Shown here: positions 689 through 47,019 of the stretch, piece after piece
Numbering within the stretch: position 1 is the first letter of the stretch
Layout: every line of letters begins with the position of its first letter
IMG/VR virus record: IMGVR_UViG_3300020182_000010
Coordinates: 32,001-96,000 of that record
Length of the DNA stretch: 64,000 bases
Strand: one strand, 5' to 3'
Origin: a virus
The notes under the pieces: model-generated
Seen by the model: only the letters and a program-made list of their open reading frames with translations
The model's database searches: none
Told to the model about the DNA's origin: nothing
Program-made: the position numbers and the translations under genes

Positions 689-1045
689 TTATTTTATGAA
701 TTGTTTTAATTCTGGTGCCTTCCAACCTTCTGGTTTTAATACCTTGCCGTCTTCACGTTTAATTACTTTGCCGGTATCTAGATTAATTTTAGCAAAGTTT
801 GTGTTCATTACTTCCTTCCACGCCGATTCTGCATCCCAGCCAGCAGCACGAATAGCACCAATGGTAACAACCAAAATATCAACTAATGCATCAAGTTGTT
901 CTACTTTGTCCTCAGCAACAACTGCATCTAATAATTCATTATACTCTTCATCAATTAATCCCAGATACATACGATAGTTTTCAGGTGATGATGGTTGGTC
1001 ACACGCTTCGGCAAATTTATTAATGTCTTCAAATACGTTTGTCAT
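689..1045 (-). CDS. MazG-like/PRA-PH family NTP pyrophosphohydrolase
   Basis: LIDEEYNEL...EQLDALVDIL acidic helices; NFAK...REDGKVLKPEGW tail. Confidence 0.85.
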   Translation of the reverse strand: MTNVFEDINKFAEACDQPSSPENYRMYLGLIDEEYNELLDAVVAEDKVEQLDALVDILVVTIGAIRAAGWDAESAWKEVMNTNFAKINLDTGKVIKREDGKVLKPEGWKAPELKQFIK

Positions 1046-1279: not shown

Positions 1280-4123
1280 TCATTTTGATAATAATACAGT
1301 ATTGCCTCCAATAGCAGTAGTATTAATACTCACGTGCTTCTCCCAAACATATGATTTTAAATAATTGGGGCCGCCAGCCTTGGGACCAGTGCCTGATAAT
1401 CCAATACCACCAAAAGGCTGTGTTTCTACAATTGCACCAATTTGATCTCTATTAATATAAATATTGCCAATATTAACATTGTTAATGATTTCTTCATAAA
1501 AAGATGCTATTCTGGAATGAATACTCATTGTTAACCCAAATTTTGTTGTATTGATATAGTCTATAATACTATCAAGTTCATCAACTTCATATTCATAAAC
1601 ATGTAGCAGAGGTCCAAATATTTCTTTATCAAAGTATTTTTTATAATCTGATACTAAATACGCACTTGGTGGAATTGTCAACGGCGGTAATTCAATACCA
1701 TTTCTTGATTTTGTTGCTATAAGTATTTCATTCTCTTCTAATACTGATATTCTATTTTGTATACTTCTAAAAGAATCACCGTCAATTACACGGGTGACAT
1801 CGGTATTTAAATCGTCACTGAATCCCATCTCTACAACACGAATAGCATTGGCCAACATTTTTAAAATATGATTAGAATTATCTTTTTGAACAAATAAAAA
1901 TCTTGTTGCACTACATCTTTGACCTGCACTATCAAATGCACCGAGTATAACATCCTTTACCAATTGTTCAGGTAAACATGTACTATCAGCAATCATACAA
2001 TTGATGCCGCCAGTCTCTGCAATAAACGGAATAATAGGTCCATCACGGTCAGCTAACACACGCTGAATACGCTTCGCAGTTTTATGTGAACCAGTAAATG
2101 TTATACCGTTAATTCGTTCATCTGCTACTGCAATCTCTGCATCTTCAGGATCACTAGGACATAATCTAATAGCATAGTCTGGTATTCCACATTCAAGCAT
2201 GCAACTGATTACAGTCTCGGCAACTCTAATTGTTTGTGGGGCAGATTTTGCTAGTACGGTATTACCAGTTAATAATGCTGCTATGATTGGTCCTACAAAA
2301 ATTGCAAGTGGAAAGTTCCACGGTGCAATAACCATCCACACTCCGTGTGGTTGATATGTAGTTGTATTACTTTCACCTGTATAACCTAATGTAATACCTT
2401 GATTATATAATGTTTCTGCTTGTTCTGCATAATATCTAATAAAATCTACGGCTTCACGAACTTCACTAATAGCATTAGAATATGTCTTATTTGCATTAAT
2501 AACTAGATTACTTGCGGCTTGTTCCATATGATCTTCTAAATGATTTGAATAATCAAGAACTAATTTCTTTCTTTCAGCAAACGTAGTTTTGCTCCATTCT
2601 TTTCTACCTTCGTCTAATATTGTAATACTATCATTCACTGATAATTGTGCAGGTACAATAAATTCGTAACTTTGTCTTCCTACTAGATTCTTAATCCACG
2701 CAGGATCAGTTAAATCATATCCACGACTATTTTTACGATCTGGATATAAATCTTTATATGTTGGTAGATTTTCTCGGTCTTTTTTCACTTCATTGAATGG
2801 ATCTACTAATTGTTGATTAAAAACAAAACTAGTGTTTGCTCCATTTTCTAATAATCTACGAACAAGATATGCAAGTAAATCTTTATATTCACCTACGGGC
2901 GCATACACTCTAACACTTGTATTGTATGTATTTCGTAGATATTCAAATAGTCCATTCCCCATACCATATAATTTTTGAAACTCAAATTCACCTCCTAGGG
3001 TTTCGTTGTAAAAGTATATGGCTGCCACGGTGAATGGATTATGTGTGGCATAAGCAGGTTTGATATACTTGGATAACATAATCTTTCTTGCACATGCTAG
3101 ATAACTTATGTCAGTATATTCCTTTCGTGTAAATACAGGATAGTGTAAGCCTTCTTGTTGTGCTATCTTTATTTCTGTATCCCAATATGCACCTTTGACT
3201 AAACGTATACATATTGATGTATTGAATTCTTCTGCAATATGTTCTAATGTTTCTATTGCCCAAAATGCACGTTTTTGATATGCTTGAACTGCGAATCCAA
3301 TTGTGTTATCTTTAAATTTATGTGTTGATAACAATTCTTCTAATACCATTATACTTATATCTAAACGCGATGCTTCCTCAGCATCAATAAACATTGTGGT
3401 GTTTTTATCTTCGCAAAGTCTGGCAATTGCCGCTAATTTTGGGACTAACTGATGTATTACATCAGCATGATTTCTTAACTCATATCTTGGATGAATAGCA
3501 CTTAGTTTAATACTAATGCTATCTTCAAAGTGTGCTGCAGCCTGTATATATTTTTCGTAGTATGCATTCGCATCTTCCCAATTTGTTGCTGCTTCGCCCA
3601 GCATATCAACTGAGTATGTGTATGATTTATCTACTGCAGTTTTTGCGGCTTCAATGGTTTCAGCCATTACAAATATATTACCCATTCTTTTAACAGATTC
3701 TTTAATAATCTTACGAACTGTGGGCCAACCCAATCTACTAATTAAATTATTATATGCTGCAAAACTCTGGGCATTAGTTAATACTTTGCCACACAAAGTT
3801 GCATAGAAACTATTTTGTGATAAAAGATTCCAATCAGCATTTGTTAGTTTTTCTTTAATTAATTTATCTTGTGTTTTTTTATCAGGTGTCCGTAGTAAAC
3901 ATTCACATAAAGTCATTAACGCAATGCCTTCATTGCCTGATAATTCATATGCAACCATAAGTTGATGTATCATACTAGATTCATTGAATGCAGAATTAAT
4001 TACATTTGATGTTTCTAATATTTCGGCACGGTCTTTTTTTGTAAGTCTTGCGGCAAGCATTAATTTTGGAATTAATTCTAGTTCATTCATTCTATAATAT
4101 ATATTGTGTTGATAAATTTTCAT
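1280..4123 (-). CDS. putA: bifunctional proline dehydrogenase / P5C (glutamate semialdehyde) dehydrogenase
   Basis: PRODH motifs DMLGE, SIKLSA, IDAEE, RLVKGAYWD, ATHN, EFQKLYGMG, YLVRRLLENGAN; ALDH motifs PWNFPL, FTGS, AETGG, SAGQRCSA, EIFGP, QPFGG. Confidence 0.95.
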   Translation of the reverse strand: MKIYQHNIYYRMNELELIPKLMLAARLTKKDRAEILETSNVINSAFNESSMIHQLMVAYELSGNEGIALMTLCECLLRTPDKKTQDKLIKEKLTNADWNLLSQNSFYATLCGKVLTNAQSFAAYNNLISRLGWPTVRKIIKESVKRMGNIFVMAETIEAAKTAVDKSYTYSVDMLGEAATNWEDANAYYEKYIQAAAHFEDSISIKLSAIHPRYELRNHADVIHQLVPKLAAIARLCEDKNTTMFIDAEEASRLDISIMVLEELLSTHKFKDNTIGFAVQAYQKRAFWAIETLEHIAEEFNTSICIRLVKGAYWDTEIKIAQQEGLHYPVFTRKEYTDISYLACARKIMLSKYIKPAYATHNPFTVAAIYFYNETLGGEFEFQKLYGMGNGLFEYLRNTYNTSVRVYAPVGEYKDLLAYLVRRLLENGANTSFVFNQQLVDPFNEVKKDRENLPTYKDLYPDRKNSRGYDLTDPAWIKNLVGRQSYEFIVPAQLSVNDSITILDEGRKEWSKTTFAERKKLVLDYSNHLEDHMEQAASNLVINANKTYSNAISEVREAVDFIRYYAEQAETLYNQGITLGYTGESNTTTYQPHGVWMVIAPWNFPLAIFVGPIIAALLTGNTVLAKSAPQTIRVAETVISCMLECGIPDYAIRLCPSDPEDAEIAVADERINGITFTGSHKTAKRIQRVLADRDGPIIPFIAETGGINCMIADSTCLPEQLVKDVILGAFDSAGQRCSATRFLFVQKDNSNHILKMLANAIRVVEMGFSDDLNTDVTRVIDGDSFRSIQNRISVLEENEILIATKSRNGIELPPLTIPPSAYLVSDYKKYFDKEIFGPLLHVYEYEVDELDSIIDYINTTKFGLTMSIHSRIASFYEEIINNVNIGNIYINRDQIGAIVETQPFGGIGLSGTGPKAGGPNYLKSYVWEKHVSINTTAIGGNTVLLSK

Positions 4124-4662
4124 AACCGTTTACTAGCCTTACTTCTTTTAAATAGTACCTTTTCAATATACCGATTATGGCGAAGTATGTCTAAATTTAT
4201 GTCAAACATCGCACGTATTTCGCCCATTGTTTTATTTTTATAAGGGTCAAAATCCACTTGATGTATATTCTTAGTTCGACGGGTCTTACCATAAATAATA
4301 CCCATATCAAACGCTATTAGTTCTCTTTCGCCAAATCGATATATTTTTGGAAATATATTCGATGCATAGTATTTATATAATGCAACATGCCAGTTTTTTA
4401 ATGACGTTGCGTTACCCATTGTGTAACCTATAACAAATGCTTCATCTTGATTTAATAATCCTCTGCCCAATAATGCGTGAATGCAATCGTGTGATTCTAA
4501 GCATATTGCGCCTGGTAAACTAAATGGTGATTTAGGATTTTCTATTATCTTTACATACCAACTTATGTCTATCGATTCACTACCCGGTAAAGTATTCAAT
4601 ACAGAAATGAGAGTGTCATTACCGTTTTCTATTCCAGGATTCCAATCACTGTAGTGTAACAT
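4120..4662 (-). CDS. Coq4-like metal-binding protein
   Basis: HDCIH-x11-E (HDxxH...E) motif; 4-nt overlap with the putA start. Confidence 0.55.
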   Translation of the reverse strand: MLHYSDWNPGIENGNDTLISVLNTLPGSESIDISWYVKIIENPKSPFSLPGAICLESHDCIHALLGRGLLNQDEAFVIGYTMGNATSLKNWHVALYKYYASNIFPKIYRFGERELIAFDMGIIYGKTRRTKNIHQVDFDPYKNKTMGEIRAMFDINLDILRHNRYIEKVLFKRSKASKRL

Positions 4663-4680
4663 AATAATATTTAGTCAGAA

Positions 4681-4782
4681 TAAAAAGAACCCGACTACCT
4701 AAGTAGCCGGGCCAAGTTTGCGAAGAGGACTATAGAGTGGATAATCCACCCTAAAGTACAGAGAAATCAATCTCTGCACTAG
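4681..4782 (-). ncRNA. candidate ~100-nt small RNA (three hairpins, intrinsic terminator)
   Basis: TAAATA at 4783-4788, then hairpins AGUGCAGAGA/UCUCUGUACU, UAGGGUGGA/UCCACUCUA and CCCGGCUAC/GUAGUCGGG followed by UUCUUUUU; no ORF. Confidence 0.6.
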
Positions 4783-4814
4783 TATTTAAAATAAAATGAT
4801 ATAAAGATAACTAT

Positions 4815-5159
4815 CTATAAAACTTTTTCTTGCAATAATGAATATATACACTCAATTACCTGTGTTGAAAACCCACCAACATGCCAGTCATATTCGCCCA
4901 ATGGGGTTGAAGGACATTTCCAATCATAAATTGTTGCTACAACAAATTCACGCATAAAACTTCCAGGAGCATCTTGTAATTCAACTTCAAATTCTAATGT
5001 CCACTCAACACTGACTTTGCCATCACCGGAATGGTCAGCACGATATGTTGGTTCACCAAAAGCAGCAACTATATCAGCATAAGTTGTTCTGACATATCCG
5101 CGTAGTCCAGTGCCATTGACGTTTACACTTGTATCATTTGTAACATTAATAATTTTCAT
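4815..5159 (-). CDS. hypothetical early phage protein
   Basis: 114 aa with ATIYDWK...WHVGG; AGGAG RBS. Confidence 0.75.
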   Translation of the reverse strand: MKIINVTNDTSVNVNGTGLRGYVRTTYADIVAAFGEPTYRADHSGDGKVSVEWTLEFEVELQDAPGSFMREFVVATIYDWKCPSTPLGEYDWHVGGFSTQVIECIYSLLQEKVL

Positions 5160-5302
5160 TGCACATCTCCTACGGTAAGATTTACTCGCTTTACACCGTT
5201 ACGCTTTCCAATATAAAAGAAAAACTTCTTTGCACTTTCATACGTTTTGAATTCTTTTGTCTTTTTAGGATAGTTGTAGTAGCCATATTCAACAGTAAAC
5301 AT
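5156..5302 (-). CDS. small hypothetical early protein (48 aa, not in the ORF track)
   Basis: MFTVEYGYYNYPKKTKEF...; GAGG RBS directly after the early promoter; ATGA overlap with the next gene. Confidence 0.65.
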   Translation of the reverse strand: MFTVEYGYYNYPKKTKEFKTYESAKKFFFYIGKRNGVKRVNLTVGDVQ

Positions 5303-5329
5303 ATTTATTTCCTCTCAACTTATACACTC

Positions 5330-5358
5330 TTTATATAGTGATTCGTTTAAGATGTCAA
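5330..5358 (-). promoter_or_regulatory. early sigma70 promoter with GANTC/YGAKTCG in the spacer
   Basis: TTGACA-tcttaaaCGAATCActa-TATAAA, 17-nt spacer. Confidence 0.85.
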
Positions 5359-5497
5359 GCACTAATTAAAATTTTATGACTTATAAATCATAGATAAATG
5401 AATAAGCAAAGAATTGGCATTGTAATCATTACACCTGTCAATGTAACATGTACAATCGACCAGAAAACCCTTTCCATTTCTAATCCTCTTCGAATTT

Positions 5498-6202
5498 TTA
5501 ATTGTTGTTGAAGTAATTTGCAGTATACTTCATTAACTGTTTTATTTGTTTTGAATCTTTAGGAAAGATATTTCTAAATCTCTGATATACAGGAAGTTCA
5601 TTTATAAACTTTTCTGGATTACGAATTGTTTCTTCTGGCGCATCTGTATCTCTAATTTCATCTGCTAAATCGTGCCCATATGCCATGAGTTCATGAGGAT
5701 CACGCAAATACATACGCATTAAATCTTGTTCTGTGCCGCCAGATTTTTTCTTCTCGACACCTTTCATATATCCACTACGATATGTCTTTAATACGTTTGG
5801 ATCAAATTTATCATATTGGTTCCAATGAATTGTTTCGTGAGCCAACATTTTCATAGCAATTTTTTTAAATGTTTCTGGTCCCCAACGGCCCTCTAAGTTT
5901 TTGGCGTGTAGAAATATTCTTACACTTTTGCCTTCTTTTGGATCCCAATCTGCTGCAGCACTAATCCATTCATCTGGATCTTTTCGTGGTGAATGGTCAG
6001 CAATAAAGTCGATAGGCAAATCATCGAAATTGTTAGCATTTAAAATCTCCTCAAGTTCATCAATATCATCACGGTCATCATTGTCAGCCAGATATTCTTG
6101 ATATTCTTTATTGGCTTCATCAATGATTTCTTCAACCTGAGAAAGAAAGTCTTCATCAGGTTGTAATCTGTTTTCTTGAATTATGATTTCATTTATTTTC
6201 AT
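5498..6202 (-). CDS. putative zinc metallopeptidase-motif protein, probable internal head protein
   Basis: AHETIH (HExxH) with a downstream PHELMA; likely start MKINEII at 6202, 5 nt after TAAATA. Confidence 0.6.
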   Translation of the reverse strand: MKINEIIIQENRLQPDEDFLSQVEEIIDEANKEYQEYLADNDDRDDIDELEEILNANNFDDLPIDFIADHSPRKDPDEWISAAADWDPKEGKSVRIFLHAKNLEGRWGPETFKKIAMKMLAHETIHWNQYDKFDPNVLKTYRSGYMKGVEKKKSGGTEQDLMRMYLRDPHELMAYGHDLADEIRDTDAPEETIRNPEKFINELPVYQRFRNIFPKDSKQIKQLMKYTANYFNNN

Positions 6203-6236
6203 GACAATATTTATCATTAATCCTAATAAATTATTA

Positions 6237-6575
6237 TTATTTCAAGTATAGTGGGCCAGTCCACTGAACTGTATAACCGCCATCAACGATATTTCCTCGA
6301 GCAGCATTACGTGCAGGAGCATTAAAACCTGCTGCTTTCAGAATATCACCACGCTTGAATTTCTTATCGTTGTCAGTGTTGACAATAAAACCCCAAACAC
6401 CATTATTGATAATCTTAATATATTTACTACCAGTCTTAACAGTAAGACGATTGTTAAACTCATTAATCATATTCTGAACATGTGTTTCAGCATCGGCAAA
6501 AGACTTACCACGAAGTAACCATTTAGCATAGTCTGCTTTGATTGTAGCGACAAGAGTATCAATTTGATTTTGCAT
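6237..6575 (-). CDS. hypothetical early phage protein
   Basis: GDILKAAGFNAPARN...WTGPLYL; follows an early promoter. Confidence 0.8.
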   Translation of the reverse strand: MQNQIDTLVATIKADYAKWLLRGKSFADAETHVQNMINEFNNRLTVKTGSKYIKIINNGVWGFIVNTDNDKKFKRGDILKAAGFNAPARNAARGNIVDGGYTVQWTGPLYLK

Positions 6576-6591
6576 TGTGTGATCCTTTGTT

Positions 6592-6635
6592 TCAATCTAT
6601 ACTTACTTTATATAGTGATTCGTTTAGAATGTCAA
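6592..6635 (-). promoter_or_regulatory. early promoter cassette (44-bp repeat) with GANTC/YGAKTCG
   Basis: TTGACAttctaaaCGAATCActaTATAAAgtaagtatagattga; identical to 6922-6965. Confidence 0.9.
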
Positions 6636-6642
6636 CCTTTTT

Positions 6643-9454: not shown

Positions 9455-9496
9455 AACTTATACACTCTTTATATAGTGATTCGTATAGATTGTCAA
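9455..9496 (-). promoter_or_regulatory. early promoter with GANTC/YGAKTCG
   Basis: TTGACAatctataCGAATCActaTATAAAgagtgtataagtt; leader shared with 5317-5358. Confidence 0.85.
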
Positions 9497-9513
9497 GTGC
9501 TAAATTTTAATAA

Positions 9514-9876
9514 TTAGTCCCACAAATTTTCATAAAATTCACCAAACAATTTAAAGGCATTGGTAAGCCGTTCTTGTGTTTCTTGCATACACTCCTTGCA
9601 TGCTGGATCAGAAAAGTTTGAACATTTATCAGCACAAATATCACCAGCGTCTATTTCTTTTGCCTTTTGTCCAAATGCCCAAATCATTTCATCTAGGATT
9701 TGGTTCCAACTTTCTTCAGTAAGACCGCTAGGATATCCATGTGTTGTTGCTTTGAGTTGTACAAGCATAGGATGAATAATCATAGCAAGTGTATGATCCA
9801 TACTCCAAGTATCGTGTGGTTCTATTTCAACTCTTGTGGCGCGATTTTTACGATATGGGCCTATTTTGACTCGCAT
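9514..9876 (-). CDS. hypothetical phage protein
   Basis: DTWSMDHTLA..IHPML..LK...HGYP...LDEMIWAF...LWD. Confidence 0.8.
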   Translation of the reverse strand: MRVKIGPYRKNRATRVEIEPHDTWSMDHTLAMIIHPMLVQLKATTHGYPSGLTEESWNQILDEMIWAFGQKAKEIDAGDICADKCSNFSDPACKECMQETQERLTNAFKLFGEFYENLWD

Positions 9877-45870: not shown

Positions 45871-46310
45871 TATTTAAATCCTTTTTCTTTCATTAATTGA
45901 TTATGTTTTTCTATGTATTCATCTTTAAACTTTGGATGATTTGCATAATAATTTGCACCTTTGCCACCAGTATGTGCAAGTCTCACACTACCTGGAAAAC
46001 CATCGACATCATCTTTGTGTCTAGGGATAAAATGAATATGAGGCCACATAACTGTTTGTCCTGCGGCTTCGCCCATATTCATACCAAAATGATAAGCATC
46101 AATCTTGCCTTCATTTCTAAGAGCATCACCATATTCAATAGTTGCTTCTAATGCAAGTGTGATAAATTTTATATTATTTTGTCGAGGGACAAAAAGTAAG
46201 TGTCCATCACACACTGGCCATTTATCTTCATAAACTGCATAGTAATATTCATTGTGAAGCCGAAGATGTTCTGATTGCTCAAAGGGGGTGTCTTCAAATT
46301 TTTCAATCAT
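45870..46310 (-). CDS. HIT family hydrolase
   Basis: GHLLFVP, AAGQTV.WPHIHFIPR; likely start MIEKF at 46310. Confidence 0.9.
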   Translation of the reverse strand: MIEKFEDTPFEQSEHLRLHNEYYYAVYEDKWPVCDGHLLFVPRQNNIKFITLALEATIEYGDALRNEGKIDAYHFGMNMGEAAGQTVMWPHIHFIPRHKDDVDGFPGSVRLAHTGGKGANYYANHPKFKDEYIEKHNQLMKEKGFK

Positions 46311-47019
46311 GCCAGATATCCAAAACTGGCAATAAATGTGAAACAACCATCGCCGATTTTTTTGAACTATCATCCACGAATGTATCGAAATCTGTATGCG
46401 AATCTTCTCCTGCGAGATCACTTAGTACTCTGACAACAATGAATGGCACATTACATTGGCAACATACTTGTGCCAAAGCAGCACCTTCCATTTCGATAGC
46501 ATCAGCATTAAATTGATTGTAAAACATTTCTCTAGTCTGTGAACAACTAAGATACGTATCACCAGTTAGTATTGTTCCAAATTTTACATTTTTTCCCAGA
46601 TGTGATTGTAAATATTTTCGCATTTCAATACTCATTTCAAATGAGATTGGATTAGTTGAATCATCCAATGCTGGAAAACTTCCAGGTAAACTAGAGTATA
46701 CTTCTCCGTTTACTATGGCGCCATAATCATGTTGAATAAGTCTGTCTGCAATTATTACATCGCCGATATTATAGTTTGGATTTAGTCCACCCGCAACACC
46801 ACTAAACACGATACTATTACATTCAAAATGAGAAATTAATATGGTAGTTACAACTGCAGAGTTTACTTTTCCAATACCAGACTCAACTGCAATGATATCA
46901 ATGCCATTAATCTTACCAATTTGAAATTTCTTTTTCATAATTGTTTTAGTTACTGGTTCATTATCCCATTCAATTTTTGAATATTCTTCTGGAATAGCGG
47001 AAATCATTCCGACTGTCAT
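46303..47019 (-). CDS. mtnN: MTA/SAH nucleosidase
   Basis: SAIPEE, SGIGKVNSA, GVAGG, TGD, EMEGAA, RVLSD. Confidence 0.93.
   Translation of the reverse strand: MTVGMISAIPEEYSKIEWDNEPVTKTIMKKKFQIGKINGIDIIAVESGIGKVNSAVVTTILISHFECNSIVFSGVAGGLNPNYNIGDVIIADRLIQHDYGAIVNGEVYSSLPGSFPALDDSTNPISFEMSIEMRKYLQSHLGKNVKFGTILTGDTYLSCSQTREMFYNQFNADAIEMEGAALAQVCCQCNVPFIVVRVLSDLAGEDSHTDFDTFVDDSSKKSAMVVSHLLPVLDIWHD

Follow-up and report, generated by a model that had tools for sequence, protein, structure and literature searches.

Small RNAs in which an unpaired, C/U-rich anti-Shine-Dalgarno motif lies between stem-loops and a Rho-independent terminator are represented by MmgR/SuhB in alphaproteobacteria, Yfr1 in cyanobacteria and NmsR in Neisseria. 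Regulatory RNAs have seldom been described in strictly lytic phages and, to our knowledge, never in uncultured marine jumbo phages. SuhB/MmgR reportedly acts together with Hfq, and its predicted mode of action is to block Shine-Dalgarno sequences (bioRxiv 10.64898/2025.12.09.693200). Among phage RNAs, LPR1/PreS of the temperate coliphage lambda is a regulatory sRNA with dnaN as its known target (bioRxiv 10.1101/2024.10.31.621285), while four uncharacterised ncRNAs of 236-619 nt, for which no promoters were described, were detected by RNA-seq in the jumbo phage PA5oct (PMC7318152). The late promoters of T4 occupy positions -13..-6, and phage Aeh1 uses the variant CTAAATA (PMC1524935).

The marine phage locus described here resembled each of these systems in part. 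With MmgR/SuhB, Yfr1 and NmsR it shared one or more hairpins, a conserved single-stranded, pyrimidine-rich stretch, a U-tail terminator and a length of approximately 60-100 nt; it differed from them in its seed, in being phage-encoded and in having a late-phage-type promoter. With LPR1/PreS and the PA5oct ncRNAs it had in common that a small RNA is encoded by the phage and that its presumed targets during lytic growth are mRNAs of host or phage; the marine RNA, at a predicted 92-100 nt, is shorter than the PA5oct RNAs, and sequence comparison strongly supports its structure and seed. The likeness to T4 late units (gp55 sigma, TATAAATA at -13..-6) consisted of the TAAATA core and its 5-nt distance to the presumed start, and relatives of the phage with complete genomes likewise encode a gp55-type sigma; the T4 units give structural-gene mRNA, whereas the product here is predicted to be a non-coding RNA. 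With moderate confidence, we consider the locus to be a self-contained gene for a late-transcribed, trans-acting regulatory small RNA of approximately 92-100 nt, whose target is likely to be a host mRNA. That the RNA is expressed, and that it is expressed late, we infer from sequence. Since 31 variants were available, nearly all base pairs covaried and the 12-nt seed was frozen, the element is a ready candidate for a new RNA family, belonging to the marine jumbo phages of a clade of approximately 342 kb.

Table 1. Positions of the predicted RNA gene, its parts and its neighbours in the window.
Feature	Position	Strand	Remarks
PutA, bifunctional proline dehydrogenase / P5C dehydrogenase	1280..4123	minus	Pfam Pro_dh + Aldedh
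180-aa gene	4120..4662	minus	Coq4-type HDxxH-x11-E motif (HDCIH-x11-E); overlaps putA start
Box 2 TAAATA	4668..4673	minus	exactly 5 nt upstream of start codon ATG 4662 (180-aa gene); adjoins the RNA gene without belonging to it
Intrinsic terminator	4681..4713	minus	11-bp stem 4713-4688, loop UUAG, then U-run 4686-4682
Unpaired linker	4731-4713	minus	from fold prediction
Invariant 12-mer UAGUCCUCUUCG	4721..4732	minus	presumed seed; within unpaired linker 4731-4713
Hairpin 2	4752-4732	minus	9 bp, loop UUA
Hairpin 1	4780-4755	minus	conserved 7-bp core 4777-4758, beginning at predicted +1
Box 1 TAAATA	4788-4783	minus	core of predicted gp55-type late promoter TTTAAATA, 4790-4783; places +1 at G4777
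Host-type early promoter for ORF48 and ORF114	5330..5358	minus	TTGACA 5358-5353, TATAAA 5335-5330

The window, i.e., the whole stretch of 64 kb that was analysed, comprises bases 32001-96000 of a 155-kb IMG/VR phage contig (35% GC; estimated to be 42% complete). The putative RNA gene sits on its minus strand between a 114-aa ORF (5159-4815) and a 180-aa ORF (4662-4120), as set out in Table 1. An earlier note on this DNA had described a TAAATA box, two hairpins, an unpaired linker, a terminator and a U-run, and each was recovered on the minus strand where it had been placed. Folding with RNAfold, which the note had proposed as a check, gave a stable structure for the predicted 98-nt RNA running from G4777 to the U-run (-41.6 kcal/mol, z = -7.25), with none of 200 shuffles being as stable; a stretch of 124 nt reached -46 kcal/mol when folded as the minus strand and -30.9 kcal/mol as the plus strand. 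Of the five G-U pairs present, three lay in the terminator and one in each of hairpins 1 and 2, and all became C-A mismatches on the plus strand; the mismatched positions do therefore pair on the minus strand only, as had been claimed, while their number is five rather than three. Similarly, the region is richer in GC than the genome, but only slightly so (0.38-0.39 against 0.35), and it is not entirely free of reading frames, as the note had it, since a 26-codon GTG frame crosses the element; this frame was frameshifted, shortened or absent in relatives, which indicates that the element is non-coding. No tRNA or tmRNA was found in the element region, and the terminator of the element was the sole terminator-like site within 3500-6500.

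The comparison with Rfam, also proposed earlier, was carried out and placed the element in no family, showing weak resemblances to sRNAs only. No family reached its gathering score anywhere in the 64-kb window. RF00519 (suhB/MmgR) scored 16.5 bits against a threshold of 41 (E = 0.28 in the window), while RF02877 (NmsR/NmsRb) scored 27.8 against 52 bits and RF01116 (Yfr1) 11.6 against 38 bits. These sub-threshold matches involved trans-acting sRNAs only (MmgR/SuhB, NmsR and Yfr1), and all lay on the strand of the RNA; five divergent variants gave no match to RF00519, RF02877 or RF01116 at E <= 1.

Homologues were sought in viral and metagenome collections, the main searches being anchored on the neighbouring 180-aa protein and not on the RNA. 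In total, 31 distinct variants of the element were obtained from related marine phage contigs, 27 of them via the neighbouring protein; a seed-anchored scan yielded four further lineages (G002-G005). The phage-clade loci recovered by the protein anchor encoded a 180-aa protein that was 64-98% identical, and the element was present in 27 of 27 such loci in one protein-anchored scan, as well as in the loci of earlier protein-anchored searches. Covariance-model scores of the element at phage-clade loci were 55-151 bits. It was absent at approximately 56 loci where the 180-aa homologue was of bacterial type (38-48% identity). Two of the relatives, G002 and G003, were complete or nearly complete genomes of 342 kb; G002 is a complete genome of 342,607 bp with direct terminal repeats. 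There was one element per genome, no second copy being found in the contig or in the complete relatives. No similar DNA was found by megablast or blastn in a collection of 50,697 phage records. A 19-mer anchor scan of 185,579 bacterial species genomes produced six chance matches, none of which contained the RNA, and exact-word scans of viral contigs produced chance matches in high-GC coding DNA. The possibility that the element travels with the upstream 114-aa gene was rejected, for distant homologues of that gene (33-41% identity) run straight into other genes.

Covariation was assessed using 26 aligned variants and 30 base pairs, in an alignment that was fitted to the model and so favours structure. 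Compensatory changes, where both sides of a pair were altered, were observed in 25 of the 30 pairs, and 95.6% of cells were paired. None of 500 column shuffles reached these values, and when the 3' partners were slid by 1-3 columns, 2-8 pairs and 41-47% pairing resulted; on this comparison the margin over the controls is very large, despite an alignment that favours structure. Helix 2 showed compensatory change in all 9 pairs across the 26 variants, while its loop varied freely in length and sequence. In helix 1 such changes affected 8 of 10 pairs, with the three outer pairs being unpaired in 5-7 variants, and the terminator (helix 3) was paired in every case (100%), with compensatory change in 8 of its 11 pairs. 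Hairpin 1, hairpin 2 and the terminator had each been replaced wholesale in some lineages, with their position unchanged; for instance, a different hairpin had been swapped in for hairpin 1 at the same place in L103 and G004, and two further versions of the terminator stem occurred among the relatives. The most distant variant folded with z = -8.4, and the predicted length of the RNA was 92-100 nt across variants. Together, the G-U pairs and the compensatory changes indicate that selection acts on the minus-strand RNA, and the aligned variants argue that all three helices are under RNA-level selection. Selection of this kind had been claimed in the earlier note, and a covariation search in relatives had been named there as a way to examine it; the claim was borne out (25 of 30 pairs, 0 of 500 shuffles), as was conservation of the structure, since both the helices and the terminator covary. 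A possible closing helix, GTTTGC/GCAAAC, was discarded because it was confined to a single group, the one with a 180-aa protein 82% identical to the window's.

In contrast to the helices, which change in sequence while pairing is kept, the linker contained a 12-mer, UAGUCCUCUUCG, that was identical in all 31 variants. Besides this 12-mer, TAAATA, a T at -1 and the 5-nt distance between TAAATA and hairpin 1 were invariant, and nothing else was. In the coding sequence adjacent to the element, compared across the same set of sequences, third codon positions were 44-50% identical and 8% invariant, the longest invariant run being 6 nt; by this measure synonymous sites of the neighbouring gene are saturated. 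That the 12-mer stayed frozen while adjacent third codon positions diverged indicates strong selection on its sequence. Its mean unpaired probability was 0.68-0.96; pairing at the foot of hairpin 2 is possible for its UAG end. The element thus presents a conserved, accessible, single-stranded seed flanked by covarying helices, as expected of an sRNA. Elsewhere in the element, the terminator stem was more conserved than a plain terminator requires. The UAGUC pentamer of the 12-mer recurs in a terminator arm, which is the 3' one in the common stem version but the 5' one in the alternative stem (window 4688-4731, minus strand; L070; L092-L094), and this repeat permits an alternative pairing of 5 bp only.

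The spacing between box 1 and the presumed start equals that of T4 gp55 late promoters, -13..-6. TAAATA was unchanged in 26 of 26 aligned variants, the first conserved hairpin 1 base always following at a distance of 5 nt, and in the G004 variant the box was the canonical TATAAATA. Across the window's genome, ATAAATA was approximately 5-fold enriched in intergenic DNA and was found 26-50 nt before many ATGs; it is read here as the late-promoter consensus of the genome. Variant boxes were also found at promoter-typical distances before a few other genes. In box 1, position -12 was T, G or C in most variants, and the A of the genome's typical late promoters occurred only in G004. G002 and G003 each carry a gene for a late sigma factor of gp55 type (phrog_12791, E = 4e-80; T4 gp55, E = 6e-5); a gp55-type gene was not found on the 155-kb fragment holding the window, itself a 42%-complete contig. 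The late sigma of G002 is a 308-aa protein (L277 958-1884; G002:179018-179944), and its likeness to T4 gp55 is distant only. Taken together, the invariant TAAATA, the covarying terminator and the G004 variant support the earlier proposal of a self-contained RNA gene with a late-type box, and, judging by the arrangement, non-coding RNAs would seem to be among the products that late promoters of gp55 type can drive. In some relatives (L052 2855-2885, L066 and L070), a 7-bp inverted repeat, AACACAA-N4-TTGTGTT, overlaps the first TAAATA bases; it is absent in the window's variant and could be an operator or the end of an upstream transcript.

A different origin for the transcript has to be weighed at this point, although we regard it as rather unlikely: the element could be the structured 3' end of the upstream early operon, where hairpins and terminator stabilise or insulate transcripts and protect the downstream leaderless promoter from read-through, the 12-mer being a binding or processing site for a protein (e.g., ribosomal protein S1, a nuclease or a phage RNA-binding protein) and a small RNA perhaps being released only by processing. 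No terminator lies between the early promoter (Table 1) and the element, so early transcripts should include the element and end at its terminator; its sequence is probably present, therefore, as the 3' end of early mRNA as well as in a late primary transcript. A role at the 3' end would also suit the failure of the phage searches to find an RNA target, the departure of box 1 from the ATAAATA consensus of the genome, and the unusually conserved terminator stem and repeated UAGUC, both of which a simple seed model leaves unexplained. However, lineages differ in the gene upstream of the RNA, which encodes 111-114 aa in some and 51-61 aa in others, yet they retain TAAATA at precisely 5 nt from hairpin 1, and G004 has the canonical box. 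Furthermore, the only unconserved pairs of hairpin 1 were its three outer, DNA-level pairs, which are located upstream of the predicted +1; this fits a primary 5' end, with the RNA beginning at G4777. Nor does a stabiliser need an invariant, unpaired stretch of 12 nt. Were the element merely a stabilising 3' end, its significance would be modest.

If the element is instead a trans-acting RNA, as preferred here, host RNA polymerase carrying the phage gp55-type late sigma would start at G4777 and stop at the U-run near 4681, with early read-through from the promoter at 5358-5330 stopping at the same terminator. The 5' hairpin and the terminator would stabilise the RNA, and the exposed, pyrimidine-rich 12-mer would recognise a purine-rich site (...CGAAGAGGACUA...) in trans by base pairing, so blocking translation there; this site would most likely be a ribosome-binding region. 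The U-tail terminator is compatible with binding of an RNA chaperone (Hfq or ProQ); no gene for either was found among those encoded by the phages.

Searches for such a site were made within the phage genomes and in E. coli stable RNAs. The earlier note had pointed to AGAGGA-type ribosome-binding sites of early genes at 5302, 9435 and 24404 as targets. These sites exist, but the proposal that early genes are targeted gained nothing from the comparison with controls, seed-complementary sites at phage ribosome-binding sites being no commoner than for shuffled seeds or the reversed pattern; early-gene targets are possible but unsupported. Start regions of phage genes contained 11 seed-complementary sites of at least 7 nt, compared with a mean of 3.2 for shuffled seeds (7 of 200 shuffles reached this number), which is explained by the resemblance of the seed to an anti-Shine-Dalgarno sequence. 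Duplex energies of the seed fell within the range of shuffled seeds, and near-matches of 12-13 nt were equally frequent for a reversed control pattern. A comparative test used 146 orthogroups common to at least three of five genomes. The best orthogroup had a mean duplex energy of -16.7 kcal/mol, compared with -17.2 kcal/mol for the best shuffled seeds, and was matched by 65% of shuffled seeds; no orthologous phage gene retained a seed site across the five genomes. Complementarity of the seed to E. coli 16S, 23S and 5S rRNA and to tRNA was at shuffle level. Hence, among phage genes and E. coli rRNA and tRNA, no complementary target with a conserved site was found. Given that the seed is identical across diverged phages, the absence of a conserved phage target makes a conserved host mRNA the likelier target.

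Several individual candidates were considered. A target in the adjacent mRNA (GGN AGA GGA YTA, encoding GRGL) was rejected because the synonymous sites vary, and the clamp-loader ribosome-binding site was rejected as a conserved target because the 12/13 match in G004 is not found in the window's phage. Two sites are weak leads, judging by complementarity. The first belongs to an unlisted, hydrophobic 29-aa ORF (ATG at 5477; 5477-5388, minus strand), with the ribosome-binding site CGAAGAGGAUUA within 5388-5492; its site at 5492-5481 could form 12 consecutive pairs with the 12-mer, one of them G-U, and was conserved in the closest relatives only. The second is the ribosome-binding site of gene 46303-47019, a candidate seed site that is also present in G001 and was not conserved across the clade.

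The 180-aa gene lacks a Shine-Dalgarno sequence, and the 5-nt spacing between box 2 and its ATG was kept in every variant having the gene, even where 30-45 nt had been inserted after the terminator; in several lineages box 2 was ATAAATA or TATAAATA. This suggests that the 180-aa gene is expressed as a leaderless mRNA from a late-type promoter at box 2, and the RNA and this adjacent gene would together point to translation-level control late in infection. We know of no such arrangement in T4, where a next gene is leaderless from a second late box. A broader role was considered and is judged improbable: the RNA, transcribed with the late sigma, would mimic an anti-Shine-Dalgarno sequence and, late in infection, cover ribosome-binding sites of the GAAGAGGA type on mRNAs of the host and/or early mRNAs of the phage, while neighbouring late genes (e.g., the Coq4-like/putA operon), being leaderless, would be spared. 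T4 shuts off early translation through RegA/RegB, and such a mimic, if real, would be an RNA counterpart of this shut-off across the 342-kb marine phage clade.

The position of the element invites another alternative, namely a cis-acting leader or attenuator of riboswitch-like or protein-mediated type, through which read-through into the Coq4-like/putA operon would be governed. The element directly precedes that operon in 30 of 31 variants and has a terminator at its end. The earlier note had likewise placed the RNA upstream of the putA operon, which is correct as to position, although a functional link was not found, and had kept an attenuating leader as its own alternative. The 180-aa gene was missing in G002, G003 and G005, and G004 had neither putA nor the Coq4-like gene; here the RNA, with its canonical box 1, different hairpins, a different terminator and the same seed, lay between a DUF7717-like gene and a MazG-like gene. 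The latter is the gene that follows putA in the window (689-1045), and in G004 it has its own Shine-Dalgarno sequence. By this comparison with G004 (L202 8016-8520) the RNA stays in the same syntenic place with or without the Coq4-like/putA cassette, and the cassette is evidently placed just after the RNA terminator by insertion or loss. That the RNA persists in G004 without putA argues for a self-contained gene and against a putA leader, the note's alternative. Other evidence agreed in making a leader very improbable. In three lineages, 30-45 nt of non-conserved sequence have been inserted between terminator and ATG, with box 2 remaining fixed to the ATG; loops and junctions vary freely, leaving no aptamer-like core; and the UCCUC tract would find no Shine-Dalgarno sequence to mask at the downstream gene. 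The minimum-free-energy fold of no variant contained a competing antiterminator, the sole alternative pairing being the 5 bp already mentioned. Thus none of the features expected of a riboswitch or attenuator was found, be it a ligand core, a competing helix or a constant downstream gene.

That the element works as DNA (as an operator bound by PutA or some other regulator, or as a site of recombination, lying between hairpins by chance) is hardly credible, for although 12 bp are invariant and read GTTTGCGAAG or GTTGGCGAAG on the plus strand, loosely like the GTTGCA sites that Escherichia coli PutA binds, the G-U pairs and compensatory changes point to minus-strand RNA, the element persists where putA is absent, and phage PutA aligns end to end with PutA structure 3HAZ (which we take to be without a DNA-binding domain), its N-terminus matching the PRODH arm only. 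A PutA operator was also rejected in its own right, since no match to a ribbon-helix-helix or other DNA-binding domain was found in phage PutA. The 180-aa protein had no Pfam match; its bacterial homologues (38-50% identity), several of which were labelled Alphaproteobacteria, were not beside putA and were without the RNA. The pairing of the 180-aa gene with putA, with overlapping stop and start, was phage-specific.

The phage has T4-like replication and baseplate genes, and among cultured phages it is closest to the 287-kb PA5oct-like Pseudomonas phages, with a clamp loader that is 54% identical. Its early promoters follow the consensus TTGACA-N6-ACGAATCAC-TATATAAAG (TTGACA-...CGAATCA...-TATAAA), of which there are about 25 copies in the contig. 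Because these promoters carry GANTC boxes, the host is probably an alphaproteobacterium, and CGAAGAGGACUA would offer a concrete handle for finding what these phages silence in such hosts. The GANTC occupies a fixed place in the spacer, as in the minus-strand examples at 5330-5358, 6590-6640 and 9470-9520.
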